Source of the DNA: Alphaproteobacteria bacterium
GTDB taxonomy: Bacteria; Pseudomonadota; Alphaproteobacteria; Rickettsiales; UBA8987
Assembly: GCA_030429725.1 (NCBI GenBank)
Contig: JAUIEX010000003.1
Coordinates: 1-62,501, forward strand
Length of the DNA: 62,501 nt
Direction of reading: 5' to 3'
Part shown: one piece after another, positions 5,057 through 42,452 of the stretch
Position numbering within the stretch: the stretch's first letter is position 1
Layout: the number at the start of each line of letters is the position of its first letter
The notes under the pieces: model-generated
Database searches by the model: none
The model's input: only the letters and a program-made list of their open reading frames with translations
Told to the model about the DNA's origin: nothing
Position numbers and translations under genes: made by a program

Positions 5057-6217
5057 TCACGGGGTGTGTGACGGGGAATTATCGGGCATCAAATTCTGTT
5101 GCCTCATCGCTTCATTCACCACTTGCTTCATCACCAGCTTGGGCGGCACATGCACCATGCTATGTTCCTTGCTTTGCGGCTGGTAAATGACGATGGTGGG
5201 GTTGGCGTTTCCCATGCCCGCTTCCCGTTGGGCTTCCGCCAGCTGCGCTTGCTCGGCAATGGCGCGGAACAATGTTTTGGTCAGCTCCGGGTTGCCTTGT
5301 AAGTTCTCAGAAAGACTTCGGGAAGGGTCATAAGGAATGAAATCCTGCGCCTCTTCGGCGGCGTTATAGGCCAGAATGGCCCTGGCCTGTTCCAGCTTCG
5401 TGTTGACCACAATTTCCGGATAGAAAGGGAATTCTTCTAATATTTGAGGGTTTTCTTTCAGCGCCGCAATCAGCTTTTTATAGGCTGCCATGGCACGTTC
5501 CTGCACTTCAGGGTCAAGCGGATCCACCGTGGCGTAAGGCTTGCCTTCCTCAAAATTTACCTGCTCTGAAACCAGATGATGCAGCGGGTGATCCGGCCGT
5601 GCACGTAACATGGCGACCACGCCAGCAAGTTTTTTTGCTTCATCTGGGTGATCCTTAAAATAGCTTTGTCCCATGGCAGCAATCGCTTCTGCTGTCTCTT
5701 CATAACTCTCCAATAATTTTATGCTAGCTTCCCACTGCGCCTTATTGGGCACGCCGTCTTCTTTTTGATAGTAAGTGCTCCATGCATCATAGGGCAGAGA
5801 AAGTATGGGAGTTGCCCCTTCAAATAAAATTCCCGTTTGACTGGCATAAGGATAAACCGGCAAAGCCAGTCCTTCTACAACGGTTGAGCTGGCAATGCCA
5901 ACTAACCCATGTTCCTTATCACCAGTTTGTGCACGCGTTCTAAACGCATCCTTAGCCTGAGAGTTTTCAGGATCATCAAAATAACCCTTATCGGTATAGG
6001 TTGCCTCTTCCTTCCCGGCCATGACACCAAGGAAACTGGCAATCTCCCCTTTTCGGGCCTGGATTGCAGCTGCCTCCGGGCTGTTGCCGGCGCCGGCAAA
6101 ACTCTCCCACATATGCAGAAAGAGCGGCTTTTCTTCCGCGTTGGCATAGCCGGCCTGAATGCTTGCAAAGGTAGCATTAAATGCCGCTAATTGATCCTCA
6201 CCATATAAATCTGTCAT
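5057..6217 (-). CDS. Orphan hypothetical protein, 386 aa
   Basis: Long AT-richer ORF with no recognised family; preceded by the shared CtrA-type promoter. Confidence 0.75.
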   Translation of the reverse strand: MTDLYGEDQLAAFNATFASIQAGYANAEEKPLFLHMWESFAGAGNSPEAAAIQARKGEIASFLGVMAGKEEATYTDKGYFDDPENSQAKDAFRTRAQTGDKEHGLVGIASSTVVEGLALPVYPYASQTGILFEGATPILSLPYDAWSTYYQKEDGVPNKAQWEASIKLLESYEETAEAIAAMGQSYFKDHPDEAKKLAGVVAMLRARPDHPLHHLVSEQVNFEEGKPYATVDPLDPEVQERAMAAYKKLIAALKENPQILEEFPFYPEIVVNTKLEQARAILAYNAAEEAQDFIPYDPSRSLSENLQGNPELTKTLFRAIAEQAQLAEAQREAGMGNANPTIVIYQPQSKEHSMVHVPPKLVMKQVVNEAMRQQNLMPDNSPSHTP

Positions 6218-6247
6218 CTTTCTACCGCCTGCTTTTATTTTCTCACT

Positions 6248-6279
6248 AGCCTATCAGGCATAGGTTAATAAAACTCTAA
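6248..6279 (-). promoter_or_regulatory. CtrA-type box plus -10 element
   Basis: TTAG-agtttta-TTAA-N11-TAGGCT on the minus strand; overlaps the Trm112 gene stop codon. Confidence 0.65.
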
Positions 6280-6479
6280 TCCTCCAGCGCTCTGGCTTCA
6301 CTTTCCAACATAATGGGAATCCCTTCCCGAATTGGAAAGGCCAGCTTGGCTTTCTCGCTGATCAGTTCCTGCGTTTTTTTGTCGTAGCGCAGCGTGCCAC
6401 GGCTGACCGGGCAGACCAGCATATTTAGCAGCGCCCTTGAAAGCTCCGGCGCGGTATCATTTTGCTTTTTTGTCATCAC
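6276..6479 (-). CDS. Trm112/YcaR family protein
   Basis: [14 protein letters not shown]...[18 protein letters not shown]. Confidence 0.92.
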
Positions 6480-6625
6480 TCTGTCCTTTCTAAAGCATTT
6501 TTAAAATTCGCTAGTACTAAGCGAAAACAGGCATCTTTGAGAACCGCACCGGAAAATACATATAAGTACTTGAGGAGCGGAAGCGCAGAAGATGCCTGTT
6601 TGCAGTCAGCGATCGTAGAATTTTA

Positions 6626-6826
6626 TCACCCACCGCCGATGAAATGCACAATTTCCACCTCATCCCCGGCGGCCAGCTGCGTGGTGGCATAGGCGATGCG
6701 CGGCACAATCTCAAAATTCCGCTCAATAGCAATTTTCCGCTCATCCAGCGCCAGCTTCTGTACCAAAGCGGCGACAGAAACCGCCCCTTCCAACGGGTAG
6801 TCCTCACCATTTAACTTAATCTGCAT
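6626..6826 (-). CDS. thiS: Sulfur carrier protein ThiS
   Basis: 66 aa, [13 protein letters not shown]-terminal [10 protein letters not shown]. Confidence 0.95.
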
Positions 6827-6859
6827 GACATCTCCTTGCGATCATCTATACTCTCTCTC

Positions 6860-7282
6860 ATGAAGATTCTAATCCTCAATGGCCCAAATCTCAACCTGCT
6901 TGGCACGCGGGAGCCGGAAATTTATGGTCACACCACGCTGGCGGATATTGAAGCGCGCTGCATGGCGCTGGGCGCGGAGCTGGGCGCGGAAATCACCTGC
7001 AGGCAAAGCAATGCGGAACATGCGCTGGTGGAGGAAATTCAGCAGGCGCGCGGTGCTTTTGATGCGATTATCATTAATGCGGCGGCCTATACCCACACTT
7101 CCGTGGCGATTCATGATGCGCTTAAAGCCAGTGGCTTACGGATTATGGAAGTCCATCTTTCCAACATCCATGCGCGGGAGGCCTTCCGCCACCATTCCCA
7201 CATTTCCCCCATCGCCGAAGGGGTAATTTGCGGGCTGGGCGTGATGGGGTATGAGGCCGCGATTCGCGCCCTGACAGCATAA
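6860..7282 (+). CDS. aroQ: Type II 3-dehydroquinate dehydratase
   Basis: [46 protein letters not shown]; start MKILIL at 6860. Confidence 0.96.
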
Positions 7283-7342
7283 ACACCGCCTTTCTTCCGG
7301 CGCTTTCCGGAAACTTCCCTTCCTCTTTGACGGCAGTGCTGT

Positions 7343-9064
7343 ATGCTGCGCCTCATGCGCATTCAGATTGAACAGATCAGCCCGGAAGTGGGCGCGATTG
7401 ATAAAAACCTTGCGCTGCTGCGTGGCTATCTGACGGCGGATGCGGATATTATTTTATTTCCGGAGCTGTGCATCAGCGGCTATCCGCCGGAGGATCTGGT
7501 GTTGCTGCCGGCTTTTCAGGAAGCCTGCCGTGATGCCGTGTTATCACTTGCCGCGGAAACCAAACAAGGCGGCGCGGCACTGATGGTGGGTGCGCCATGG
7601 GCGGAAGACGGCAAGATTTATAACGCCACCTTCCTGCTGGCCGATGGCGGCATTGCCCACCGGCAATATAAGCATGCTTTGCCGAATTACGGCGTGTTTG
7701 ATGAGGCGCGTCTGTTCAGCGCCGGCGCCCTCCCAAAACCATTCCAATTCCGAAATGAAACCTTTGGGCTGTTGATTTGTGAAGATTTATGGGATCAAAC
7801 CGTGCCGGTTTCACTTGCGGGTTCGTCACTTGTTTTTTCCATCAATGCTTCGCCTTATGAGGTGAATAAAACGGCGCTGCGCCGTCAGCGCGCCCGCCAT
7901 GCGGCGGCACAAACCGGCGCCCCGCTGATTTACGTGAACCAGCTTTGCGGGCAGGATGATCTGGTGTTTGACGGTGGCTCCTTCGTGCTGAATGCGGCGG
8001 GAGAGGAAATTCTGACCCTGCCGCATTTTGAAGTGGGGAGTGCGGTGTTGGCATTTTCTAATAGTTCCCTGAATGTTGTTCCTGAACATCCCATGGAACG
8101 GGGCTCAGGGCTGCGCTCGCCTGCTGGCGCGCAGGATAGGAATGATTCCGCCCCCCCACCTGAAACTGCAATTGCAGTTTCAGACTCCCTCACAAATGGG
8201 GAGTTATCTTACATCTATCAGGCGATGATGCTGGCGCTTTCCGCCTATGTGGAGAAGAATCATTTTCCCGGCGTGTTGATTGGCCTCTCCGGCGGGATTG
8301 ATTCCGCCCTTTCCGCTGCCATTGCCGTGGACGCGCTTGGGGCGGAACGTGTGCAGACGGTGATGCTGCCTTCGGAATTTACGTCACAGGAAAGTCTGGA
8401 AGATGCCGCCAGGTGCGCCGAAATGCTGGGCTGCCTCTATGATATCATACCTATTGATAGCGCACGCGCCGCTGTCACACAGGAACTTTTGCCTTTTTTT
8501 GAGGGCACAAAGCCCGGGCTGGCGGAAGAAAATATCCAGTCCCGCCTGCGCGGCTTGCTGCTGATGGCGCTATCCAACAAATATGGTAAAATGGTGCTTT
8601 CCACGGGCAATAAGTCCGAGATGGCAGTGGGTTACGCCACCTTATACGGCGATATGTGCGGCGGTTATAACGTTCTGAAAGATGTCTATAAATCCACTGT
8701 TTTTGAACTGGCGCGCTGGCGCAACGCGCATATTCCGCCGGCAGCGAAAGGTGGAAACGCCATGGCGATGCCGGAGCGGGTGATCACCAAGCCGCCTTCG
8801 GCGGAATTGCGCCATGACCAGAAAGATGAGGATTCCCTGCCGCCTTATCCGGTGCTGGATGAAATTCTGCGTCACTTCATCGAAGGGCAAATGCGCCCGC
8901 GTGACATCATTGCCAAAGGCTTTGATGAGGCTGCCGTCCGCCATATTGTGCAGCTGGTTCACCGCGCGGAATATAAGCGCCGGCAATCCCCGCCGGGGGT
9001 CAAAATCGGCACGCGCCCCTTCAGCCGCGACCGCCGCTTTCCCATCACGAACGGGTTTTTCTGA
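7343..9064 (+). CDS. nadE: Glutamine-dependent NAD+ synthetase carrying an in-frame palindromic insert
   Basis: Nitrilase domain (FPELCISGYPPEDL, LICEDLW) plus synthetase domain (GLSGGIDS, ENIQSRLRG, TGNKSE, PPSAEL). Confidence 0.95.
   Translation: MLRLMRIQIEQISPEVGAIDKNLALLRGYLTADADIILFPELCISGYPPEDLVLLPAFQEACRDAVLSLAAETKQGGAALMVGAPWAEDGKIYNATFLLADGGIAHRQYKHALPNYGVFDEARLFSAGALPKPFQFRNETFGLLICEDLWDQTVPVSLAGSSLVFSINASPYEVNKTALRRQRARHAAAQTGAPLIYVNQLCGQDDLVFDGGSFVLNAAGEEILTLPHFEVGSAVLAFSNSSLNVVPEHPMERGSGLRSPAGAQDRNDSAPPPETAIAVSDSLTNGELSYIYQAMMLALSAYVEKNHFPGVLIGLSGGIDSALSAAIAVDALGAERVQTVMLPSEFTSQESLEDAARCAEMLGCLYDIIPIDSARAAVTQELLPFFEGTKPGLAEENIQSRLRGLLLMALSNKYGKMVLSTGNKSEMAVGYATLYGDMCGGYNVLKDVYKSTVFELARWRNAHIPPAAKGGNAMAMPERVITKPPSAELRHDQKDEDSLPPYPVLDEILRHFIEGQMRPRDIIAKGFDEAAVRHIVQLVHRAEYKRRQSPPGVKIGTRPFSRDRRFPITNGFF
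8064..8208 (+). repeat. Palindromic element family A, in-frame inside nadE
   Basis: Aligns along its length with the reverse complement of ubiD 57833-57986; hairpins CTGAAACTGCA/TGCAGTTTCAG and ACTCCC/GGGAGT. Confidence 0.85.
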
Positions 9065-10664: not shown

Positions 10665-11845
10665 GCCGAGGCCGAAGATAGTGAACTGGGCGGTACGGCG
10701 TTCAGCTGATCCATCAAGGCATCGGCATCCGGATGATCTTCTTTGGCCTTCACGGCATTAATGAAATTCCGTGCCTTTTCCGGCTGATGGTTGGCCAGTG
10801 CCGCATCCGCCTGCACCAGCTGTGTTTCCACATGTACCGGCGCCTGCGCCACCAGCCCCTTAACCAGCTTCTGCTGCTGTTTTTCATCCAGCGCCAGTAA
10901 CGTCACCATCTTTCTATAAAGCGAATATTCCGGCGCCAGCCGCCAGAGATTTTTGAGGGTGGCTTTCGCCGCGTGGCTTTGCCCCATGCCGGCTTGCAAT
11001 GTCATCAACATCACTGCCGCCTCCACATTGCGCGGGGCTTCTTTCTGCGCTTTCTGCGCATGGCTCAACGCAATCTGATTAGGGTTTTTCCCGCCGTTTG
11101 ATGCCTTATCGGCCAGCGCCAGATGCGCCTTCACCCGCCATTTTCGTACCATATCCGCGGAAAGCTGGCGTGCCCCGAAAAAGCGGCCGGCATCATGCTT
11201 CAGCACATCCATCACCGCGTCCCAATCCTGCATTTTTTCATAGCTTTCCAGCAGAGCGATGGTGGCTTCGGCCGTGTTATGGGTGCTGTAACGTTCCTCG
11301 GCATATTCCACCATGGCCTGCGTATCGCCAATCTGGCGGGATTGGTGATAAAGCCCGGTCAAGGCCAGCGGCTTGGTAACCTCATACGCACTTAGTTGCT
11401 GATAATGTGCCAATGCCTCACGCTTATCCCCGGAAAGCTCCGCCGCACGCGCGGACACAATATGTGCCAGCGGCCTTAGTTCCTCCAGCTTCTTTGCGCT
11501 GGCCTGCAAGCGGCTGGAGAGACGGTCTGCGGAAGAAATATCCTTCTCCGCCAATGCACATAAAGATTGCGCCACCAAGGTGATGGATTGTCTGGCGTGT
11601 TTCAGTGCGCGTTTATCCCGCATGCGCGAAGGAATACGCAGCACTCCAAAAACCAGCTCCAGCAGCAGAAACAGCACAATAAACCCAAGTGCCAGCACCA
11701 CCAAGGCCGCCGCCAGCTTCAACTCAATATGCCAGTCGGCAAGGTCAAACCCAACCCAGCCACTTTGATGCGAGAGCCATGATCCCACAAATGCCGCCGC
11801 CACCAGCAGCGCTAAAGTGAATAAAAGTGAGAGAAAACGTTTCAT
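10661..11845 (-). CDS. hemY: HemY-like membrane-anchored TPR protein
   Basis: Two N-terminal TM segments (WLSHQSGWV), helical repeats, adjacent to a COG4223/HemX-like gene as usual in alphaproteobacteria. Confidence 0.65.
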   Translation of the reverse strand: MKRFLSLLFTLALLVAAAFVGSWLSHQSGWVGFDLADWHIELKLAAALVVLALGFIVLFLLLELVFGVLRIPSRMRDKRALKHARQSITLVAQSLCALAEKDISSADRLSSRLQASAKKLEELRPLAHIVSARAAELSGDKREALAHYQQLSAYEVTKPLALTGLYHQSRQIGDTQAMVEYAEERYSTHNTAEATIALLESYEKMQDWDAVMDVLKHDAGRFFGARQLSADMVRKWRVKAHLALADKASNGGKNPNQIALSHAQKAQKEAPRNVEAAVMLMTLQAGMGQSHAAKATLKNLWRLAPEYSLYRKMVTLLALDEKQQQKLVKGLVAQAPVHVETQLVQADAALANHQPEKARNFINAVKAKEDHPDADALMDQLNAVPPSSLSSASA

Positions 11846-12951
11846 TCACCCACCCCCCGTTCCGGCTCAAGTGCATTCAGCGCCTGCGGACTGGCTGGTT
11901 TTTTGATGCTTATTTTTGGTGCGTCCTCACTCAGCGTTTTGAGTAAACGGTCAAATGCTTCCTGCCGTGCCAGCGCACCGCGCAAGCCTTCTTCGATGGA
12001 AGCCGCCAGATTCAGCACCGAAGGCGGCAGCACTTCCAGCACCGTCATCGCCGCCTCAAAATCCTGCTGCATGATAAGTTTTTCCGCATGTATCAGCGCC
12101 GCTTCATAACTATCCGCCGCGGGCGGCTCTTTCACATCCAACGTATACGCCCTCACCATTTCCGGCAGCCATGAAAGCGCCTTTGAAAGCCACGCCGGAA
12201 GCCCGGCCAGCCATTGTTGCACCATCACCGTGCCCCGCAATTTTTTGACCTCCAACGCCAGCGAAGCCGCGCTTTGTGTGCTGGTTTGCAGGCTGACCCA
12301 GGCCATCATTTCCACCTGCAATGCATCATTATCACCTATCAATGCCGGCAGGCGCTGAAGCGCCGCTTCTTTTTCCTCACCTTCGGGAAGATTCATCACT
12401 ATCAGAAGTTCACGCATCAACCGGGATGTATTTTTTTCCGGAGCGAGCTTTGCCTGTGGCGGCGCCGGGCGGCTGGCAAGAGTCTCTTTCAGGGTCTTCT
12501 GCTCCGCCTCCATCTGTTGCTGGCGCGTGACCATTGCCTGCAATTGCTGCTCCAGCTCCTGCACGCGACCATCTTCCGGCGGAGGCGGAGGCGGTGGTGG
12601 TGGTGGTGAAATAAACATGTCAGGCGGTGAAACCAACAACTCCGAAGCCATTTCCGGTGGTGGCGGAGGAGGAGGAGGAGGTGGCACAGGACGCCGCTCT
12701 TCATACATCATCCACGCCATGCCGCCCAGAATCACTACCGTCAATAGCAAGAGAAGGGCGATAGCGGAACCACCGGTGCCGGAACGTGGCGGCGCCCCGG
12801 GCGTGGTCGAAGCATTATTGTTTTCTCCGGCGGAATCACCTTGTTCCTTAGAAGCAACATCAGGCGCAGGCACGCCCGTATCTTTCTCCGCCACATTCAC
12901 TGGCCTGGTAACGTGCTTTTTTGCAGAAGATGTTTTTTTTGCGCCGGACAT
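11842..12951 (-). CDS. COG4223/mitofilin-like (HemX-position) membrane protein with poly-Pro linkers
   Basis: Single TM, two poly-Pro runs, coiled coil, ALIHAEKLIMQQDFEAAM C-terminal motif; overlaps the hemY-like start. Confidence 0.6.
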   Translation of the reverse strand: MSGAKKTSSAKKHVTRPVNVAEKDTGVPAPDVASKEQGDSAGENNNASTTPGAPPRSGTGGSAIALLLLLTVVILGGMAWMMYEERRPVPPPPPPPPPPEMASELLVSPPDMFISPPPPPPPPPPEDGRVQELEQQLQAMVTRQQQMEAEQKTLKETLASRPAPPQAKLAPEKNTSRLMRELLIVMNLPEGEEKEAALQRLPALIGDNDALQVEMMAWVSLQTSTQSAASLALEVKKLRGTVMVQQWLAGLPAWLSKALSWLPEMVRAYTLDVKEPPAADSYEAALIHAEKLIMQQDFEAAMTVLEVLPPSVLNLAASIEEGLRGALARQEAFDRLLKTLSEDAPKISIKKPASPQALNALEPERGVGE

Positions 12952-15429: not shown

Positions 15430-17607
15430 TCAAGAATCATCACTCAGGAAGTTCAGCTCGTCACCCTGATGATCCAGATAGCTCAGCAGCGCGACGACGG
15501 TTTTACGCTGATAGCGCTTGCCGATCTGCTCCATCAGTAATTTCAGCACATCCTCGCGGTTCATGCCCTGACGATGGGCGCGGTCGCTCGTCATGGCGAT
15601 GTAATCATTGGCCAGTGTGACCACGCGCGCCGTGGGCAGGATGTTATCCCCGGAAATACCCAGCGGGCCGCTGCCGTCCCATGCCTCCCGTGCCTGACGG
15701 ATGGTGTTCACCACCGGCCCGTCAAATTCCAGCTCCTCAATCAGATCCGCCCCGGCGGAAAGCGCTTCCTGAATCTGATCACGTTCCTTCTTGGTGAGCT
15801 TGCCTTTTTTGGTCAAAAGTTCCACCGGCAGCAGCATTTTACCCAGATTCATCAACTTGCCGGCGATGGCGGCGGTTTCCACCAGCGCGCTATCCATATC
15901 CAGCTGCTCGGCAATCTGTTCCGCCAGAAAGGACACCTTCGCCGAATGCTGCGCGGAATAAGGATCACGCTTATCAATCAACGCCACCAGTGACGCCACC
16001 AGATCACGCAGCAGACGCTCCCGCCGCTGGCGTTCATCCATGGCATTGGTAATATCCTGCTCCACAATCAGCATGCCGCGCCCATGCGCACCATCTTCCT
16101 CCGGAAGCTCCGCTAACGGTAGATATTTCACCTGACTCACATGGGCGTGGCCGGCCGCATCAACCCGCTGCTGCAGGCGTGTGAGGCTGCGATTATCATG
16201 AATGAGGTCTTCCAGCGCCTCCAGATAAGGCTGGGCGCGTGCTGCGCCGAAAACATCCCGCAGATGCTTGCCGCGCAGGGTTCCCGGTTTCATATTGGCG
16301 TTAAGTGCGGCGGTTTTATTCGCAAATGTCACCTGCCCTTCGGCGCTCACCATCAACATGGCATCCGGGTCATGCTCCGCCACCAGCTCCAGTAATTTCT
16401 GCTGTGCGCCATAGCGTTTGGCCAGTGCGCGGAAACGCTCCGCCTGCTGTTCCGCACGCACCGATGCGCCATAACGCCACGCCGCCAGCAGCAGCGCCAG
16501 CAGCGCCAGAATCACACTCACCGAAAGCGCCATCCATGTCACGCGGCGCGTCTCGGCAGCGCCCAGCGCCTCCTCATAGCCAATTTTATGCACCAGCACC
16601 CAGTCCGTCCCTTCGATCCTGCGACTGGTCATCAGCACTTTTTGCCCGTCATAGTCAAACCGCACCCCAAAACTTCCCGGGTTGGAAAGTGCGTGCTGCG
16701 CCGTATAAGAGGGGCGATCAATGTTCAGTTTCAGTGAAAATGGCGCAATATCATCCTTCAGCGGGGAGATATATTCCACCACCCCCTGCTTTTCGCGCAG
16801 CAATAATGTTTCCAGCGTGTCGGAAAGCTGCGGCGGCTGGCTGAGTAACGGATAAAGTTCCTGCGCCACACGCTTCACCCCCAGCACCACGCCCATCTGC
16901 TGGCTGGCAATGGCCTCCCCCTGAATGGCAAAAACCGGCACTAAAAACGCCATCACGGGCTTGCCGTCCGCATCCGGGAACACATCCAGCATGGCGGGCT
17001 GCGCCTTTGGGCTTTCTAACAGAAACTGCCGTAAGCGAGCACTGATCAACGGCGCACCTTCCGTGGCCACCACCACGCGATTGGTACGATCCAGCAGGAT
17101 AATTCCCGTATTGCCGCCCTGCGCCACATTGGCACGAATGGCGGGCTGAAGGTCACCACTTTTAAAGCCCGAACGCTCAGCGGCAACGCTGATCAATGTT
17201 TGCAAAAATTGTGTTTCCACCGGCTCATCTTCCAGCCGGTCAGGGTCTAGGCGATTAAAATTAAGTTCCGTTACATAAAGCCGCAAAGACATATTCTCCG
17301 CAATGGCCTCAAGCTCATCCTTTTGTGACTTCACCCAACGGCGCACACTATCCGCTCTGGCATCCGCCAGCAGATTCAACCGCACTTCCCATGCGCCCAT
17401 TTCCCGGTCAAAATTATCATTGGCCAGACGCAGCGCCAGCGCCATGCCGATACAAGCCAGCATCAGCAATGTCAGCGCAAGATAGCTACCTTTACGCAAC
17501 ACTCGCGCCACCTGCACGCGGCTTTCGCGCCCTTTTATCGCCTCATCCATACTGTCATCAGTGCTATCCGTCTGCACATCCTTGGCTTTCATTTGGTTTT
17601 CTGCCAT
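15430..17607 (-). CDS. Membrane sensor: periplasmic Cache-like domain, PAS, degenerate HD-GYP
   Basis: Two TM helices around a long periplasmic region; PAS (DAMLMVSAEGQVTFAN); RDPYSAQHS...LMNLGK...REAWDGSG-PLG...TSDRAHR. Confidence 0.82.
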   Translation of the reverse strand: MAENQMKAKDVQTDSTDDSMDEAIKGRESRVQVARVLRKGSYLALTLLMLACIGMALALRLANDNFDREMGAWEVRLNLLADARADSVRRWVKSQKDELEAIAENMSLRLYVTELNFNRLDPDRLEDEPVETQFLQTLISVAAERSGFKSGDLQPAIRANVAQGGNTGIILLDRTNRVVVATEGAPLISARLRQFLLESPKAQPAMLDVFPDADGKPVMAFLVPVFAIQGEAIASQQMGVVLGVKRVAQELYPLLSQPPQLSDTLETLLLREKQGVVEYISPLKDDIAPFSLKLNIDRPSYTAQHALSNPGSFGVRFDYDGQKVLMTSRRIEGTDWVLVHKIGYEEALGAAETRRVTWMALSVSVILALLALLLAAWRYGASVRAEQQAERFRALAKRYGAQQKLLELVAEHDPDAMLMVSAEGQVTFANKTAALNANMKPGTLRGKHLRDVFGAARAQPYLEALEDLIHDNRSLTRLQQRVDAAGHAHVSQVKYLPLAELPEEDGAHGRGMLIVEQDITNAMDERQRRERLLRDLVASLVALIDKRDPYSAQHSAKVSFLAEQIAEQLDMDSALVETAAIAGKLMNLGKMLLPVELLTKKGKLTKKERDQIQEALSAGADLIEELEFDGPVVNTIRQAREAWDGSGPLGISGDNILPTARVVTLANDYIAMTSDRAHRQGMNREDVLKLLMEQIGKRYQRKTVVALLSYLDHQGDELNFLSDDS

Positions 17608-17616
17608 CTTGGAATC

Positions 17617-18303
17617 ATGCCCCCTGCGTTAAACCATACAAGCAAGCCTTTCCTTGGACAAGCCGCTTCTATCATCTTGCTTTGCACGGCGTGGGCGATG
17701 GTTTATTTCACGCCGCTGCCTGTGCCGTATTCGCCGCAGATGCAGGCGCAGGCCAGCGAGCTTTTCGGCTCGCGTGAGCGGCGCTCCCGTCAGCTGCGCT
17801 CCTTCAACAAATGGACGGAAATGCTGGATCGTTATGAAGGTGAGATTGATGCCTTTCCACAATGTCAGGGCACTAAAAGCTGCGCGTTGCGGCGCTGGAA
17901 TCAAAGCCTGAACGCCATGCGTTCCCTGCCGCGCGCCAGCCAGCTTCAGGAGGTCAACAGCCTGTTCAACCGGGTGCGCTATGTGCAGGACGCGGTCAAT
18001 TGGGGGCTGCCGGATTATTGGTCAACCCCCTATGAATTTCACATTAAAAACGGCGATTGTGAGGATTATGCCATCAGTAAATATAAAGCCCTGAAAGCAC
18101 TGGGCTGGAATCAGAATGAGATGCGGATTGTGGTGCTGATGGATCACAATCTTGGCATCCATCATTCCGTGCTGGCGGTCTATGACGGTGATGAAATTTA
18201 CATTCTGGATAACCAGATTAAGCAGGTGACCTCCCACCGCCGCATCGCGCATTATGAGCCGATTTATTCCATCAATGAAAATTTCTGGTGGCGTCATCGT
18301 TAA
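17617..18303 (+). CDS. lapG: Transglutaminase-like cysteine peptidase (LapG/C93 family)
   Basis: DYWSTPYEF, GDCEDYAISKY, HHSVLAV, ILDNQ give the Cys-His-Asp triad; N-terminal hydrophobic segment. Confidence 0.85.
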   Translation: MPPALNHTSKPFLGQAASIILLCTAWAMVYFTPLPVPYSPQMQAQASELFGSRERRSRQLRSFNKWTEMLDRYEGEIDAFPQCQGTKSCALRRWNQSLNAMRSLPRASQLQEVNSLFNRVRYVQDAVNWGLPDYWSTPYEFHIKNGDCEDYAISKYKALKALGWNQNEMRIVVLMDHNLGIHHSVLAVYDGDEIYILDNQIKQVTSHRRIAHYEPIYSINENFWWRHR

Positions 18304-36563: not shown

Positions 36564-38549
36564 TTATCGTAAATTTATTTCCTGATCCGCACCAGCCTCT
36601 TTTTCCGCTTCCGCCGCCACAGCATAACCCTCTTTCATTATAGGTTCCGGCTTCCGCCGCTTTTCCATCCTGGCGGCAGCATTTTCTGAGGCTGCATCCA
36701 TGTGACTACGTAATCCATCCGATGCTTGCGGGCGCGGTGCTTTCATTTCTCCTTCAACGGCTTTATCGCGGCCCGCTAGGACTTCTCCCAGCGGGTTGCC
36801 GGCACCTTTGGGCTTGGTGTGTGTCGCCGGCACCTGATTGGCACTATCAGCATCAGCGGGGAGCGGCTCCGGCGGCAAATTGGCGGAAGCAGGTTCCGGT
36901 GCTGTTTTAGGCGGCGCAGATGGGGGCGCGTCCGGCTGGCTATCGGAAAATTTCGGGTCATCCCCCGTCACGGGCGGTGGCGTTGGTTTTGTTGATGCAA
37001 CGGGTGGCGGCGCAACCTTATCACCCTCCGGCCGGCGCGCCAGTGGTTTTGTTTTCGCTGCGGCTTCCGGTTCTTTCGGCGCTTTAGGTTCAGGCGGCTT
37101 TTCCTTCGCCACAGGGGATGGCGCGGGTTCCGGGGCTTTATCCCCGCCATTCGTTACCAACTCCCCTTTGTCATTCACGCTAACCTTCGAAAGCTCCTTT
37201 TGCTCCGATTGTGCGGCGGCGGATGACAGCTTTGGTTCCGGTGGGTTTTTCTTATCCTTGCCCGACATCACTTTTCCATCTTGATTCACGCTAACCTTCG
37301 AAAGCTCCGGCTTGTTGGCAGATGTGGTTTCAGTCGTGTCACCCTTTCTTATATCCGCTGCCGGCGCATCCTGCGGTGTTTCGGCGGGCTTTCCATTCGC
37401 AGGCTTCGCTGTATCCGCCGCCTTCTGATCCGGCGCCTCCTTGCTGCCATCACCGCTCTTTGCCGCAGCGGCACCTGCTGCGGCGGTGATGGCCGGGTCA
37501 ATCCCCCGTTTCATTGCATCTTTTTTCGAACCTTCTTGATTTAGCGTCTGCTGATCGACAAATTTCTGCTTTTCACTGGCCAAAGCCTGCTGCGGAGAGC
37601 AATAAGACCCTTCCGGCAATTCTTCCTGCATTTCCGGCCTCAGGGCATATTCCGGAAAAAATTCTGAAAATTTGGTGGAAATGCTCTTGGCATCGTTTAA
37701 GTTCATGACCGGATCACCGCGCCCAAACAGACCGGATTCGTAAACAAGACCATTAGCATCCAGTTCCCACTCACTGTGCCCCAGCATATTTTTCTTCAGC
37801 TTGCTGTCCAGTATTGCACCAAATTCATAGCCAAGCTGCGCCACAAGAAAGGTAATCTGCTTGCCGCTTAAGCCCTGCGCGCTCAGCTGCTTATGCAGAT
37901 GGCCGGACAAGGCACGGCTGAATTCCATATGCGCACCGCGATAATTTTTCAGCGTTTGCGCCGCCCGTGGACTGCCATTTTCCTGCAACTGGCCAACCGC
38001 TTCCTGCGCCAGACCGTTAAGATAGAAATATTCCACACTGGTTTTGTTGACGTCATTAATTTCCGTATAGCGCCCTGAAATCGCGCCCTGATAAAGCCCC
38101 TTGGCGAAAAGAAAGGGCAGCACCAGCAACAGATTATCCGATTCAATCAGCCCATCTTTCGGGTCAAAGAAAATATACTCCAGCGCGCCGGCGGAAAATT
38201 CCCGTATCTGATAAATGGAAGGGGTAATGGCTTTATCGCCAATTTTAAGGCGCAATTCCTGAAGGTCATCAATCAGCTTCTGCGTGTCGTTAACAAACAC
38301 ATCCCAGCTGAAAAACTCGCCCCTTTCGGCATAGCCAAGGCTGCGAATATCCAGCAAACGGTCATAAACATTCCGGCTTTTGCTTGCCGCCCCCACCGTG
38401 CGCACACCGTTCGGATTGCCGGCATAACGATGCAGGCGGCGCTCCGACTGTGCGGCGGCCCTGTATTCATCCCATTCGGCAACGGGATCAAGATCATCGG
38501 CATTAAAGCCGATGGTTGAACCGATCCCTGTGTTGCGATCATCCGCCAT
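36564..38549 (-). CDS. Orphan protein, 661 aa, with Pro/Ala/Lys-rich disordered C-terminal half
   Basis: Long ORF with GGAG RBS, CtrA-type promoter and an internal 25-bp duplication. Confidence 0.75.
   Translation of the reverse strand: MADDRNTGIGSTIGFNADDLDPVAEWDEYRAAAQSERRLHRYAGNPNGVRTVGAASKSRNVYDRLLDIRSLGYAERGEFFSWDVFVNDTQKLIDDLQELRLKIGDKAITPSIYQIREFSAGALEYIFFDPKDGLIESDNLLLVLPFLFAKGLYQGAISGRYTEINDVNKTSVEYFYLNGLAQEAVGQLQENGSPRAAQTLKNYRGAHMEFSRALSGHLHKQLSAQGLSGKQITFLVAQLGYEFGAILDSKLKKNMLGHSEWELDANGLVYESGLFGRGDPVMNLNDAKSISTKFSEFFPEYALRPEMQEELPEGSYCSPQQALASEKQKFVDQQTLNQEGSKKDAMKRGIDPAITAAAGAAAAKSGDGSKEAPDQKAADTAKPANGKPAETPQDAPAADIRKGDTTETTSANKPELSKVSVNQDGKVMSGKDKKNPPEPKLSSAAAQSEQKELSKVSVNDKGELVTNGGDKAPEPAPSPVAKEKPPEPKAPKEPEAAAKTKPLARRPEGDKVAPPPVASTKPTPPPVTGDDPKFSDSQPDAPPSAPPKTAPEPASANLPPEPLPADADSANQVPATHTKPKGAGNPLGEVLAGRDKAVEGEMKAPRPQASDGLRSHMDAASENAAARMEKRRKPEPIMKEGYAVAAEAEKEAGADQEINLR
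37173..37308. repeat. Exact 25-bp direct repeat pair (ELSKVSVN) inside the orphan ORF
   Basis: ATTCACGCTAACCTTCGAAAGCTCC at 37173-37197 and 37284-37308. Confidence 0.9.
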
Positions 38550-38565
38550 AAAAACTCCAACTTTT

Positions 38566-38597
38566 AGTATAGCATCAGGGGCTTAACAAAGGGTTAA
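38566..38597 (-). promoter_or_regulatory. CtrA-type box plus -10 element
   Basis: Perfect TTAA-ccctttg-TTAA-N11-TATACT. Confidence 0.8.
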
Positions 38598-38732
38598 GCA
38601 CACGCGGTTTTTGGGTTGGAAGGCACTTTATTTCCTCCTATCACGGCGCACCCACGGCAAAGGAAATTTCCGGCGCCACAAACCTGCCTCGGCTTTTGGC
38701 CTCACAAGAATGTCTGGAGCAAGAAATAGCGG

Positions 38733-41700
38733 CTATTTTTGCTGAATTTTTGGGGTTAAACCCATAAATTGCGCCATGTTATTCAGGCGCTTAACAATGG
38801 AGCTGTTCATAATATCCAGCGCTGTCGGATACGTTAAAATCAGCTGCTGATCAGCCACTTCAAGATCGGTTTGCTCCAGAATTTCCGGAATCGTGCCGGA
38901 AAGCTGGTGCGCCAGCCGCATGGAAATACCCAATTGTTCGGCTTTTCTCTGCCAGGTTTTCGGCAGTAATTTTTGTGCTCTTTTCATCAATTTCTTATCC
39001 TGCGCCGAGCGGTAGCGATGGTAGAGCGCGGTGGCCACAAACACCCGCTCCGGGTGGGTGATGCCGGGCAATTCGGCGTCCATCACCCAGCGCCAGCCCA
39101 TTTCCGCGCGATATTCCGTGTGGTTATGCCAGGCAATACGGCTGAGGATGCAGGCCGTTTTGCGAAGGCGGCGCAGATTGGGCGCCTCCTCCGGGTAAAG
39201 CGGGTTGAGCCAGCGATGCAGGCTTAAGCCATGACGCACCCAGCGATTCGTCTCCCCACCGCCATGTTGCGGCGCAATATGCGCCATTTCATCGGTGGCG
39301 GCCGTCACCAGCGCATCCTGCAGGCGCTGCTCATCGGGCAGCTGGTCAAACAGCACCCCTTCCCGCACGCCATGGGTGGAAAAAACAATGGATGAGGGCT
39401 GCGAAAAAAGGATGACCTGTTGGAAAATCATGGCGGAGAGCGTTAATGTCTGGGCACGTGGGGCGCTGAGGGTAAATTGCACCTCCATTTCCTCAGCCGA
39501 CATGGCCATGAGGCTTTCTAAGGTTGGCAGCAGTGCCTCCGGCGTAATTTCATAATGGGTAATCACCTGCACCGGATGTTTGTGATGCTGCATGTGGATT
39601 TTGGCGATGGTGCGCAGCGCCCCGCCCACGGCATAGAGCGTCCGGCCATTCATCATCTGTTTCAGCGGAATGGATTGCAGCGCCTGCCGCACGGCACGCG
39701 TGGCGCTTTTCATGGAGGCTTCCGGTGTTTGTTTTTCCGCCACCAGCCGCAGCGGGCCAATGGGAAAACTGATGGGAGCCGGCAGATCGTCACCCTGCTG
39801 TTCCTCCGGCGGGGCGATCTGTGCCACCTCAAGGCTGCCGCCGCCAAGATCAATCATAATGCCGCTGGGCTGATGCACTACCGAGGCCACGCCCATAGCG
39901 GAATAGCGGGCTTCTTCCTCCCCGGAAAGCACGCGCACCTCCAGCCCGCAAACGGCTTTCACCTCCGTCACAAAATCAGCGCCATCTTCCGCATCGCGCA
40001 CGGCCGCCGTGGCAATGGCAAAAATCTTCGGCACATTCAGTGTGTTAAGCAGGATGGCAAAGCGCTTTAGCGCCTGAAGCGCCGTGTGGCGACCTTCCGG
40101 GTGCAGCCGCCCGCTGGTCAGCATGCCACGCGCCATGCCGCAAAGAACTTTCTCGTTATGCTCCGGCAGCGGGGTTCGTTTTAACCCGTCATAAATGACC
40201 AGCCGCACGGAATTTGAGCCAATATCAATCACCGCGATGCGGGGCAGATGGATGCGGGGCAGATATTCAAAATCACCATGAGCGGGGTTTTTTCTCTGGT
40301 CTTCCGCCGCCTGTTCGGCAATGGCCAGCGCCGAGCCGCGCCCGGAAAGGCTTGGGTTGCTCATGAAATAATCATGGGCGCAAAACGAGCTTGGCGTGTA
40401 GGTGAGGCGTTCATAGCTGCCGTCACCATGCAGCATCCAGCTTTGGCGCATATCTTTCAGGTTTGCGCTCATAATCTGGTTGAGAATTTGCTCATGCACC
40501 GTGCCACTACGGATCGGCACCATCAGCTCCACCCGACGATGCATGTTACGCTGCATCCAGTCTGCCGAGCTGATAAACACTTTCGTATAGCGGCTGGGCA
40601 GCGGAAACCCCCCGCCGAAGCAGAAAATGCGCGCATGCTCCAGAAAGCGCCCAACAATGCTCTTCACGCGGATGGTTTCGCTCATGCCTTTAACGCCCGG
40701 CTTCAGGCAGCAAATACCGCGGATCACCAGATCAATCTCCACCCCGGCGCGGGAAGCATCATAGAGCTTGCGGATCAGCACCGGATCCACCAGCGCATTC
40801 ATTTTCAGCCAGATGGCCGCCGGTTTGTCCGATTGCGCAAAGGCAATTTCTTCATCAATAAGCTGCAATAAGGTGCGCTGTAAATTGGCCGGTGCAATCA
40901 CGAAATGATCAAAATTATCCGCCAGATGCTGGGTGGCATCACTGTCGCGCAGCAGGGCGGTACGGCTAAGCTCAATGAAGAGCTGCTCCATATCCCCACA
41001 TAAACCGGCATCATAGGTAAAGTAGGATAAATCACTGAAAATCCTTGCGGAAATTGGGTGGTAATTGCCGGTGCCAAGATGGGCATAACGCTCGGTACGG
41101 CCACCCACTTTACGGGTCACAAGAGAGGCTTTGAGGTGGGCTTTAATGCCCGGCAGGCCATACACAACCCTCACCCCGGCCTGTTCCAGCCGCCTTCCCC
41201 ATTGCAGGTTGGAAGCCTCATCGAAACGCGCCTTCACCTCCACAATCGCCAGCACATCCTTGCCGGCGCGCGCTGCTTCTTCCAGCGCCTGTATGATCGG
41301 CGAGTCGGCCGAGGTGCGGTATAATGTCTGCTTGATGGTGGTCACATACGGATCATGTGCGGCCTGCCGCAGATATTGAACCACCACATCAAAGGTTTCA
41401 TAGGGGTGATGCACCAGAATATCCTTGGCGCGGATGGCGGCAAAACAATCTCCGCCAAAATCATTGATACGCTCCGGGAAGCGCGTGCGGTAGGCCGGAA
41501 ATTTCAGATGGTCATAGGGCAAAGAAGCCAGCTCCATCACATCGCGAATTCCCAGCATGCCCACGCTTTGCGTCACGCGCTCCAGCGGCAGGGTGATTTT
41601 CTGCCGCAAAATCTGCAGCAGTTCCGGGTGAATATCGCCGCTGATTACCTGCCGGACAATGCTGGCTTTCTGGCGTTTGCGCAGCGCATCTTCAAACTGG

Positions 41701-42452
41701 CTGACCAGATCATCCGCCTCTTCAATAATATCCAGCTTGGCATCGCGGATCAGCCGGAAACTGCCCGCCTTCACCACATGATATCCGGGGAAGGAGCGAG
41801 TGGCAAAATGGGTGATGATTTCTTCCAGCGGCAGCAGGCGGCTTCCGATTTGCCCTTCCAGATTAGGCGCAAGCAGAAAGCGCGGAAGCGATTCCGGCAA
41901 AGGAATCAGCACATGGCTGAGCTTTTCCTCCTCCTGATGCCGGATGGTGAGGGTAAGGATCATCCGCAAATTGGGAAGGATGGGCAATGTTTCCTCTTCA
42001 CCCAGCCACACAGGCTTGATCTGGGGATAGATATTTTCGGTAAAATTATCCTCCATCCACTCCGCCAGATGGGGGATTGCGGCGGCATCTTCGGCGCGGA
42101 GCAAGTGGATATCCTCGGCGGCCATCAGCGCCATCAGCGATTGCCAGCATTCATGCTGACGGGCAACCTGCTCCGCCGTCTGGTGGTAAATCTCAACCAG
42201 CAGCTCCGAAGGGCGCAAGCCGGAGTCACGGATTTCGTCCATGTCGCGCTCCACCCGGCTCAGCAGGCCGGCCACCCGCACCATGTAAAATTCATCCAGA
42301 TTGGACGCGGTGATGGACAGAAATTTCACCCGCTCCAGCAGCGGATGGTTGCGGTTCTCCGCCTCTTCCAGCACACGCTGGTTAAAGGCCAGCCATGACA
42401 GATCACGATCCAGCAGATCGGTTTTTGACAACAGCGTTTGATGTGGCTTCAT
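38733..42452 (-). CDS. ppk1-ppx: Fused polyphosphate kinase 1 / exopolyphosphatase (Ppx/GppA)
   Basis: PPK1: RDLSWLAFNQRVL, HHPYETF, YAHLGTGNY, RFLEHAR. Ppx: IDIGSNSVRL, SGEEEARY, DLGGGSLEV. One 1239-aa frame. Confidence 0.92.
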   Translation of the reverse strand: MKPHQTLLSKTDLLDRDLSWLAFNQRVLEEAENRNHPLLERVKFLSITASNLDEFYMVRVAGLLSRVERDMDEIRDSGLRPSELLVEIYHQTAEQVARQHECWQSLMALMAAEDIHLLRAEDAAAIPHLAEWMEDNFTENIYPQIKPVWLGEEETLPILPNLRMILTLTIRHQEEEKLSHVLIPLPESLPRFLLAPNLEGQIGSRLLPLEEIITHFATRSFPGYHVVKAGSFRLIRDAKLDIIEEADDLVSQFEDALRKRQKASIVRQVISGDIHPELLQILRQKITLPLERVTQSVGMLGIRDVMELASLPYDHLKFPAYRTRFPERINDFGGDCFAAIRAKDILVHHPYETFDVVVQYLRQAAHDPYVTTIKQTLYRTSADSPIIQALEEAARAGKDVLAIVEVKARFDEASNLQWGRRLEQAGVRVVYGLPGIKAHLKASLVTRKVGGRTERYAHLGTGNYHPISARIFSDLSYFTYDAGLCGDMEQLFIELSRTALLRDSDATQHLADNFDHFVIAPANLQRTLLQLIDEEIAFAQSDKPAAIWLKMNALVDPVLIRKLYDASRAGVEIDLVIRGICCLKPGVKGMSETIRVKSIVGRFLEHARIFCFGGGFPLPSRYTKVFISSADWMQRNMHRRVELMVPIRSGTVHEQILNQIMSANLKDMRQSWMLHGDGSYERLTYTPSSFCAHDYFMSNPSLSGRGSALAIAEQAAEDQRKNPAHGDFEYLPRIHLPRIAVIDIGSNSVRLVIYDGLKRTPLPEHNEKVLCGMARGMLTSGRLHPEGRHTALQALKRFAILLNTLNVPKIFAIATAAVRDAEDGADFVTEVKAVCGLEVRVLSGEEEARYSAMGVASVVHQPSGIMIDLGGGSLEVAQIAPPEEQQGDDLPAPISFPIGPLRLVAEKQTPEASMKSATRAVRQALQSIPLKQMMNGRTLYAVGGALRTIAKIHMQHHKHPVQVITHYEITPEALLPTLESLMAMSAEEMEVQFTLSAPRAQTLTLSAMIFQQVILFSQPSSIVFSTHGVREGVLFDQLPDEQRLQDALVTAATDEMAHIAPQHGGGETNRWVRHGLSLHRWLNPLYPEEAPNLRRLRKTACILSRIAWHNHTEYRAEMGWRWVMDAELPGITHPERVFVATALYHRYRSAQDKKLMKRAQKLLPKTWQRKAEQLGISMRLAHQLSGTIPEILEQTDLEVADQQLILTYPTALDIMNSSIVKRLNNMAQFMGLTPKIQQK

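Follow-up and report, generated by a model that had tools for sequence, protein, structure and literature searches.

A DvhD-type receptor gene divergently paired with a LapG-type protease gene in a Rickettsiales genome, and its probable coupling to CdrA-like TpsA adhesins

The receptor DvhD of Desulfovibrio (Nitratidesulfovibrio) vulgaris, which combines a periplasmic dCache domain, transmembrane segments, a PAS domain and an inactive HD-GYP domain, binds cyclic di-GMP (c-di-GMP) at high affinity without hydrolysing it and governs DvhG, a LapG-like protease that cleaves two type I secretion system (T1SS) adhesins at their (T/A/P)AAG sites (Karbelkar et al. 2024, PMC10990149; Font et al. 2026, PMC13090378). 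Four reports (PMC5422565, PMC4694147, PMC11898600, bioRxiv 10.64898/2026.07.13.738186) describe a different target for Pseudomonas aeruginosa LapG, which cuts the C-terminal TAAG of the TpsA protein CdrA at residues 2105/2106 of 2154 and so strips CdrA of the cysteine hook that anchors it in CdrB. CdrA-like TpsA proteins, exported by type Vb or two-partner secretion (TPS), are a documented second class of LapG substrate. Here we describe a receptor and protease gene pair from an alphaproteobacterium (GTDB lineage Rickettsiales; UBA8987), found in a window of 62,501 nucleotides that comprises positions 1 to 62,501 of contig JAUIEX010000003.1 (assembly GCA_030429725.1), forward strand. We think it probable that the pair works as a DvhD/DvhG-type inside-out c-di-GMP switch, with two CdrA-like TpsA adhesins encoded elsewhere in the genome (contigs C4 and C52), and not T1SS adhesins, as its most likely substrates. 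The pair and its spacer are laid out as follows.

15430-17607, minus strand: DvhD-type receptor gene, 725 aa (transmembrane helix 1, periplasmic dCache, transmembrane helix 2, PAS, degenerate HD-GYP), identified from the open reading frame (ORF), Pfam, and PDB sequence and Foldseek matches to 9rc0, 9rbz and 9rc2
17608-17616: 9-nt spacer between the two divergent ATG codons, CTTGGAATC, by direct sequence reading
17617-18303, plus strand: gene for a LapG/DvhG-type calcium-dependent cysteine protease of the bacterial transglutaminase-like cysteine proteinase (BTLCP; C93) family, 228 aa, identified from Pfam PF06035 and PDB alignment

The protease matches Pfam Peptidase_C93 (PF06035) at 3.8e-19 and 69.5 bits, against a 27-bit cut-off, and its best PDB matches are Legionella pneumophila LapG 4fgo (1.8e-19) and the protease chain E of 4u65. 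Alignment with both structures places the triad at C148 (in GDCEDYA), H183 and D198 (numbering starts with the ATG at 17617), which bears out the C93/LapG assignment that an earlier, sequence-only reading of this DNA had made from the same residues. The D-C-E calcium-binding motif is present around the catalytic Cys, and a hydrophobic segment at residues 11-36 of the hydropathy scan is a putative export signal or N-terminal anchor. This is the sole C93 gene in the genome, an assembly of 1.74 Mb in 74 contigs with 98% estimated completeness.

The receptor resolves into five segments.

17419-17493, minus strand: transmembrane helix 1 (residues ~39-63), from a hydropathy scan; inside a continuous helix, 3-103, of the AlphaFold2 model
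16549-17418, minus strand: periplasmic dCache-like domain (residues ~64-353), from a sub-threshold Pfam dCache_1 match and the Foldseek match to 9rc2
16459-16548, minus strand: transmembrane helix 2 (residues ~354-383), from a hydropathy scan; helix 344-411 in the AlphaFold2 model
16048-16404, minus strand: cytoplasmic PAS domain (residues ~402-520), from Pfam PAS_4 and alignment with the DvhD construct 9rc0
15478-15990, minus strand: degenerate HD-GYP domain (residues ~540-710), from Pfam HD_5, the DvhD alignment, the columns of a 78-homologue alignment and Foldseek

Pfam matches are to HD_5 (3.8e-28, residues 540-700), PAS_4 (2.8e-10, residues 411-520) and, below the 45-bit cut-off, dCache_1 (1.3e-7, 31.9 bits, residues 77-340). 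The two hydrophobic segments bracket the Cache region, in agreement with the two-transmembrane periplasmic sensor that had been proposed. By phmmer, residues 402-708 align with the DvhD PAS/HD-GYP crystal construct 9rc0 (E 1.1e-29), and a profile of the family scores DvhD PAS/HD-GYP at 2.2e-75 and 257 bits, the next HD-GYP protein reaching 136 bits. An AlphaFold2 model of the receptor, built on an alignment (A2) of 78 alphaproteobacterial homologues and having a mean predicted local distance difference test score of 84.6, gave the same answer in a Foldseek search of the PDB. DvhD PAS/HD-GYP 9rc0 ranked first, followed by the c-di-GMP-bound DvhD HD-GYP structure 9rbz with template modelling (TM) scores of 0.83-0.85 and root-mean-square deviations of 2.9-3.8 Å, while for the periplasmic part the DvhD periplasmic domain 9rc2 (E 1.9e-8, TM score 0.72) stood above the Mlp37 and Mlp24 dCache structures. 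All three receptor modules are by these alignments and the predicted fold closest to DvhD, and the protein is one of the inner membrane, presumably dimeric. The PAS domain is not the added input that the sequence-only reading had taken it for, since DvhD itself has one and the window protein aligns with 9rc0 across both PAS and HD-GYP.

Degeneration of the HD-GYP domain, claimed from the motifs LMNLGK, REAWDGSG-P and ANDYIA, all of which are present, is a property of the whole family. In the receptor M586-N587 stand in place of the HD dyad, A639-R640 in place of the HH pair and N667 in place of the first ADxFD Asp, and GYP has lost its Tyr by deletion. Among the 78 alphaproteobacterial homologues the HD motif has become (M/L)N, with Asn for the former Asp, in 77; all 78 have Asn for the ADxFD Asp; a single homologue retains the second HH His; and the residues commonly found at the GYP position do not include Tyr. 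H554, the first metal-binding His, does not vary. The receptor HD-GYP domain is predicted to be unable to hydrolyse c-di-GMP because all the metal ligands of these motifs are lost.

Residues that contact c-di-GMP in the DvhD crystal structure (PMC13090378), mapped onto the receptor through the phmmer alignment, have fared differently. DvhD K520 corresponds to R547 (78/78 homologues), Y523 to Y550 (Tyr or Phe in 74/78), P567 to P594 (67/78), L577 to L604 (76/78), K582 to R609, M646 to M672 (73/78), R650 to R676 (78/78) and Y652 to H678, a position that is aromatic in 75/78. Lost catalysis together with a largely retained ligand pocket is the pattern expected of a receptor, and this comparison of residues suggests that the domain binds c-di-GMP. 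The nucleotide is likely to be made in the cell: the genome encodes five GGDEF-domain proteins, three of them with an intact GGDEF or GGEEF motif (PAS-GGDEF, REC-GGDEF and a PleD-like REC-REC-GGDEF). None of the five is LapD-like, and the single GGDEF-EAL protein is a cytoplasmic PAS-GGDEF-EAL protein with no transmembrane segment or periplasmic domain.

The receptor and protease genes also travel together. A scan of GTDB species genomes for relatives of the receptor returned 448 stretches, of which the best 80 loci were examined; almost all are alphaproteobacterial (Dongia, Aestuariispira, Pacificispira, Virgifigura, Magnetovibrio and many metagenome-assembled genomes, MAGs). A LapG homologue is also encoded at 59 of these 80 loci, and in 58 of the 59 it has the same divergent upstream arrangement; the remaining 21 loci gave no LapG match, seven of them being too short upstream to judge. 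A metagenomic relative, 42% identical, has the same divergent layout. Within the window's own order, whose genomes measure 1.1-2.5 Mb, the protease occurs in 19 of 41 genomes, and at least 14 of the 18 protease loci of relatives have the receptor beside it. With 58 of the 59 loci that hold both genes sharing the divergent arrangement, the adjacency is no accident. Receptor and protease form a conserved two-gene module of patchy distribution. Three of the 80 receptor homologues (L055, L065 and L075) carry one in-frame stop each in the matched region, and are pseudogenes or assembly errors.

DvhG orthologues from Kiloniella, Sneathiella, Oceanibacterium and Pelagibius are listed in Supplementary Table 7 of Font et al. 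2026 (PMC13090378). Where the sequence-only reading had put the window pair forward as an alphaproteobacterial DvhD/DvhG-like switch, its kinship holds, with DvhD as the best sequence and fold match and the pairing conserved. As we take all four of those genera to be Alphaproteobacteria, DvhG was already catalogued in this class, and occurrence there is not in itself new.

Candidate substrates lie on two other contigs, each encoding a TpsA protein followed by its TpsB partner.

Contig C4, 34071-37454: tpsA, 1127 aa; tpsB follows at 37516-39231
Contig C52, 7635-12176, minus strand: tpsA, 1513 aa; tpsB downstream at 5852-7582, minus strand

The Pfam TPS domain is found in the two N-termini (6e-22 and 1.8e-28), and both downstream ORFs match ShlB and POTRA_2. 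Both TpsA proteins have a proline-rich linker followed by a C-terminal tail, ...LEDISPAAGEDLEGKFCRDVNTGAITKEICSDNKALSAL in the C4 protein and ...FGLINPAAGGNIDSVFCMFVNTADQPQLCQGADQAVF in the C52 protein, and both tails read L-x-x-(I/L)-x-PAAG, then Cys-X11-12-Cys. Among 809 genome ORFs of at least 300 aa, these two are the only ones with PAAG and then at least two Cys within the last 70 residues. The tails match the anatomy of the P. aeruginosa CdrA LapG site and cysteine hook, and by this likeness the protease would be expected to cleave them.

Two further TpsA-like proteins, C66:45910-50625 (plus strand) and C73:41884-46044 (minus strand), are without a Cys hook. The tail of the C66 protein (...AKISPQAGETEILGG...) resembles ISPAAGE but has Gln where the first Ala would stand, and may be a variant that cannot be cleaved. 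Contigs C10 and C73 apparently hold two pieces of one split TpsA.

Across the order, TpsA 3' ends were taken from 40 relatives and complete TpsA counted. Protease-positive genomes gave 19 complete TpsA, of which 10 have a tail of the form L-x-x-(I/L)-x-PAAG-(G/E/D/A)...C-X6-21-C-X2-9-end (two in G000 and one each in G019, G020, G022, G023, G027, G033, G043 and G050); none of the 15 from protease-negative genomes of the order has it. Fisher's test of tail against protease presence gave p = 0.0007 for proteins and 0.007 for genomes, the genomes being related and the counts not independent. In three genomes (G023, G043 and G046) a TPS operon stands directly beside LapG. The order in G023 is receptor (minus strand), LapG, tpsB and tpsA, with a TpsA that carries two PAAG sites and a Cys pair at its end; in G043 it is tpsB, tpsA (three AAG sites and a Cys pair), LapG (minus strand) and receptor. 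This linkage is specific to the window's own order, because no TPS gene was found in the 10 kb on either side of the 80 loci from the wider Alphaproteobacteria. For the order of uncultured, small-genome bacteria as a whole we lean towards a DvhD-type receptor and LapG-type protease that are coupled to type Vb adhesins through a C-terminal tag, L-x-x-(I/L)-x-PAAG followed by Cys-X6-21-Cys, although with less confidence than for the window pair.

The protease-negative genome G024 encodes four giant TpsA (L161, L162, L164 and L165; 2410-4973 aa) with a terminal Cys-X7-15-Cys and no AAG, a sequence pattern that suggests hook-anchored adhesins not releasable by LapG.

Taking these observations with what is described for DvhD and CdrA, we infer the following cycle of nucleotide binding, receptor-protease contact and tail cleavage. 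At high c-di-GMP the nucleotide would bind the dead HD-GYP dimer, and the stalk, PAS domain and transmembrane helices would rearrange as in DvhD. The dCache domain would then hold or occlude the protease, and the TpsA adhesins would remain hooked in their TpsB pores. At low c-di-GMP the freed protease would cut PA|AG, a di-alanine cut that would remove the 30-32-residue Cys hook plugging the TpsB pore and shed the adhesin from the cell. Near-invariant periplasmic residues in the receptor alignment are N105, S107, Y111, L135, N137-L139, A143, G147 and F148; by analogy with the alpha1' interface proposed for DvhD, the protease is likely to bind at the strongly conserved periplasmic helices of residues 106-146.

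Several observations weigh against parts of this reading. With NCBIfam LapG model NF045674 the protease scores 83.4 bits, far under the 320-bit equivalog cut-off, and on this score it is a C93 family member but not an equivalog of Pseudomonas (gammaproteobacterial) LapG. Common descent within a single order confounds the co-occurrence of TpsA and LapG, the tail is missing from nine complete TpsA of protease-positive genomes, four protease-positive genomes have no detected TPS domain, and the TPS operon beside LapG in G046 has a TpsA with no AAG site. In the wider class the substrates look different: retention_LapA-like modules are present in 14 of 16 larger receptor-encoding genomes of Alphaproteobacteria, mostly in ORFs of 1000-8000 aa, and several of these ORFs carry sites of DFETAAG consensus. 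One Rhodospirillales MAG has, directly downstream of its receptor homologue, an adhesin of 1975 aa (L081:7279-13203, minus strand) in which a LapA-like retention module is combined with a DDFATAAGG site; it is the only LapA-like neighbour in the flanks of the 80 loci. It is possible that a LapA-like gene was lost from the 74-contig draft, giant repetitive genes often being lost from MAGs. The same switch could then serve a T1SS adhesin of the LapA/DvhA type, or some other protein anchored in the periplasm, that the fragmented assembly lacks, with the TpsA PAAG tails not being protease sites at all. We consider this unlikely. No retention module was found in the whole genome with retention_LapA NF033682 (E<=1), or in all six-frame genome ORFs with a hidden Markov model (HMM) built from 15 alphaproteobacterial retention modules and run with --max; tblastn of the genome with the N-terminus of a relative's adhesin gave no match, and a (T/A/P)AAG scan over the first 400 residues of long genome ORFs returned housekeeping or repeat matches only. 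These searches covered an assembly of high estimated completeness, its only T1SS ATP-binding cassette (ABC) protein has no C39-like domain, and one would have to explain separately both the pattern of TpsA tails and their linkage to the pair in relatives. The sequence-only reading would have counted the lack of a LapA-like substrate or T1SS in the genome against the switch. Neither a LapA-like substrate nor a LapB-type T1SS was found, yet the switch is not thereby refuted, since CdrA-like TpsA with a LapG-type site are encoded.

Three DvhD contacts are lost in the receptor: Y621, the phosphate-contacting GYP Tyr, is deleted, the bridging-site R569 is replaced by E596, and E668 by Q694. Because of these losses the affinity, stoichiometry and even nucleotide preference of the receptor could differ from those of DvhD. 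They also give some footing to the idea that the receptor is not a c-di-GMP sensor and that its HD-GYP domain serves only for dimerisation or as a scaffold, or takes a different nucleotide, for example 3'3'-cyclic GMP-AMP (3'3'-cGAMP), with the protease controlled outside-in through a dCache or PAS ligand. This is rather improbable, as most canonical-site residues are invariant or nearly so in the 78 homologues despite lost catalysis, which points to selection for ligand binding; the fold of the HD-GYP domain can be superposed on that of DvhD with bound c-di-GMP, and diguanylate cyclases are encoded in the genome. That the HD-GYP domain is instead an active c-di-GMP phosphodiesterase, its adjacency with the protease functionally meaningless, is hardly credible. 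The Pfam HD_5 model and an NCBIfam NosR-family phosphodiesterase model both match the receptor, and H554 is kept, but non-ligand residues take the place of the HD, HH and ADxFD ligands in this protein and in 77-78 of the 78 homologues, DvhD with equivalent losses shows no hydrolysis (PMC13090378), and the near-uniform divergent pairing argues against meaningless adjacency.

Compared with DvhD/DvhG, the window pair has an identical receptor architecture with an HD-GYP domain that has lost its metal ligands (PDB 9rc0, 9rbz, 9rc2), a receptor gene that adjoins a BTLCP protease gene with the C-H-D triad and D-C-E calcium motif, and most of the c-di-GMP contacts. It differs in standing alone amid housekeeping genes as a divergent pair, whereas DvhDG sits in a T1SS/adhesin operon; in its HD motif, S-Q in DvhD and M-N here; in the deleted GYP Tyr and the Glu in place of R569; and in its candidate substrates, which are type Vb TpsA, no DvhA-type T1SS adhesin being detectable in the genome. 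The P. aeruginosa LapD/LapG/CdrAB system shares with the window genome a (T/P)AAG near the TpsA C-terminus upstream of a cysteine pair and the order tpsA-tpsB, together with the cleavage and c-di-GMP control that we predict here. LapD, however, is composed of a LapD/MoxY periplasmic domain, HAMP, GGDEF and EAL, unlike the dCache-PAS-HD-GYP receptor of the window, and CdrA has TAAG, a tail of ~48 aa and 2154 aa in all, against PAAG, tails of 30-32 aa and lengths of 1127 and 1513 aa. The LapD/LapG/LapA system of Pseudomonas fluorescens with its LapBCE T1SS is alike in logic, an inner-membrane c-di-GMP receptor gating a periplasmic BTLCP protease that clips the di-alanine site of a surface adhesin, but the window genome is without LapD, an N-terminal retention module or a LapB-type C39-like ABC transporter.

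The pair itself is a further member of the DvhDG family, which was described in 2024-2026 and is here extended into a poorly sampled alphaproteobacterial lineage. The catalytic degeneracy of DvhD and most of its c-di-GMP contacts are conserved across at least 78 alphaproteobacterial homologues, which supports HD-GYP-based c-di-GMP receptors as a widespread alternative to LapD. In the literature searched we found no description of a DvhD-type pair coupled to type Vb adhesins, and the probable coupling is a modest but real novelty. If true, it would be the first case in which c-di-GMP controls TpsA shedding independently of LapD, and LapG substrates among TpsA could be predicted by a sequence rule, also in genomes without LapA-like proteins. 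If the PAAG and Cys-hook tails are cleaved, DvhD-type receptors would govern type Vb as well as type I adhesins, and the LapG protease would be the fixed element around which receptor and substrate class can be exchanged as modules. The organism, an uncultured and deeply branching alphaproteobacterium with a small genome, comes from biofloc metagenomes, a setting in which control over aggregation plausibly matters.

The sequence-only reading had placed the head-to-head starts about 9 nt apart; the ATG codons, the receptor's ending at 17607 and the protease's starting at 17617, lie exactly 9 nt apart, and the aligned ends of the two genes are 87-528 nt apart in relatives. An upstream TTG at 17593 taken as the protease start would make the genes overlap, and a later Met taken as the receptor start would widen the gap to ~66 nt. 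With the 9-nt gap, or with the overlap that the TTG creates, the promoter and ribosome-binding site of each gene must fall inside the 5' coding region of the other (17593-17630).

Two candidates for parts of a Lap-type system elsewhere in the genome were set aside. A 711-aa protein encoded on contig C38 contains YYLAQNPDVAAAG repeats, which we took for a repeat motif and not for a LapG site. The only HlyD/ABC pair (C38:85611-89005, plus strand, found with TIGR01843) was rejected as a LapBCE equivalent, being PrtD-like with no C39-like domain. Contig C34 encodes a 989-aa RTX-repeat (repeats-in-toxin) protein, which with the PrtD-type ABC/HlyD pair on C38 is probably an unrelated exoprotein system.

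The window holds no T1SS or adhesin gene, as had been said of it from the sequence alone. An ORF at 11842-12951 (minus strand, 369 aa) has no Pfam match, an N-terminal hydrophobic segment and two runs of 10-11 prolines, and adjoins a HemY_N/tetratricopeptide repeat (TPR) gene. The largest ORF of the window, at 38733-42452 (minus strand, 1239 aa), encodes, in one chain, polyphosphate kinase 1 (PPK1) with all four PPK domains fused to an exopolyphosphatase (Ppx-GppA and Ppx_C).

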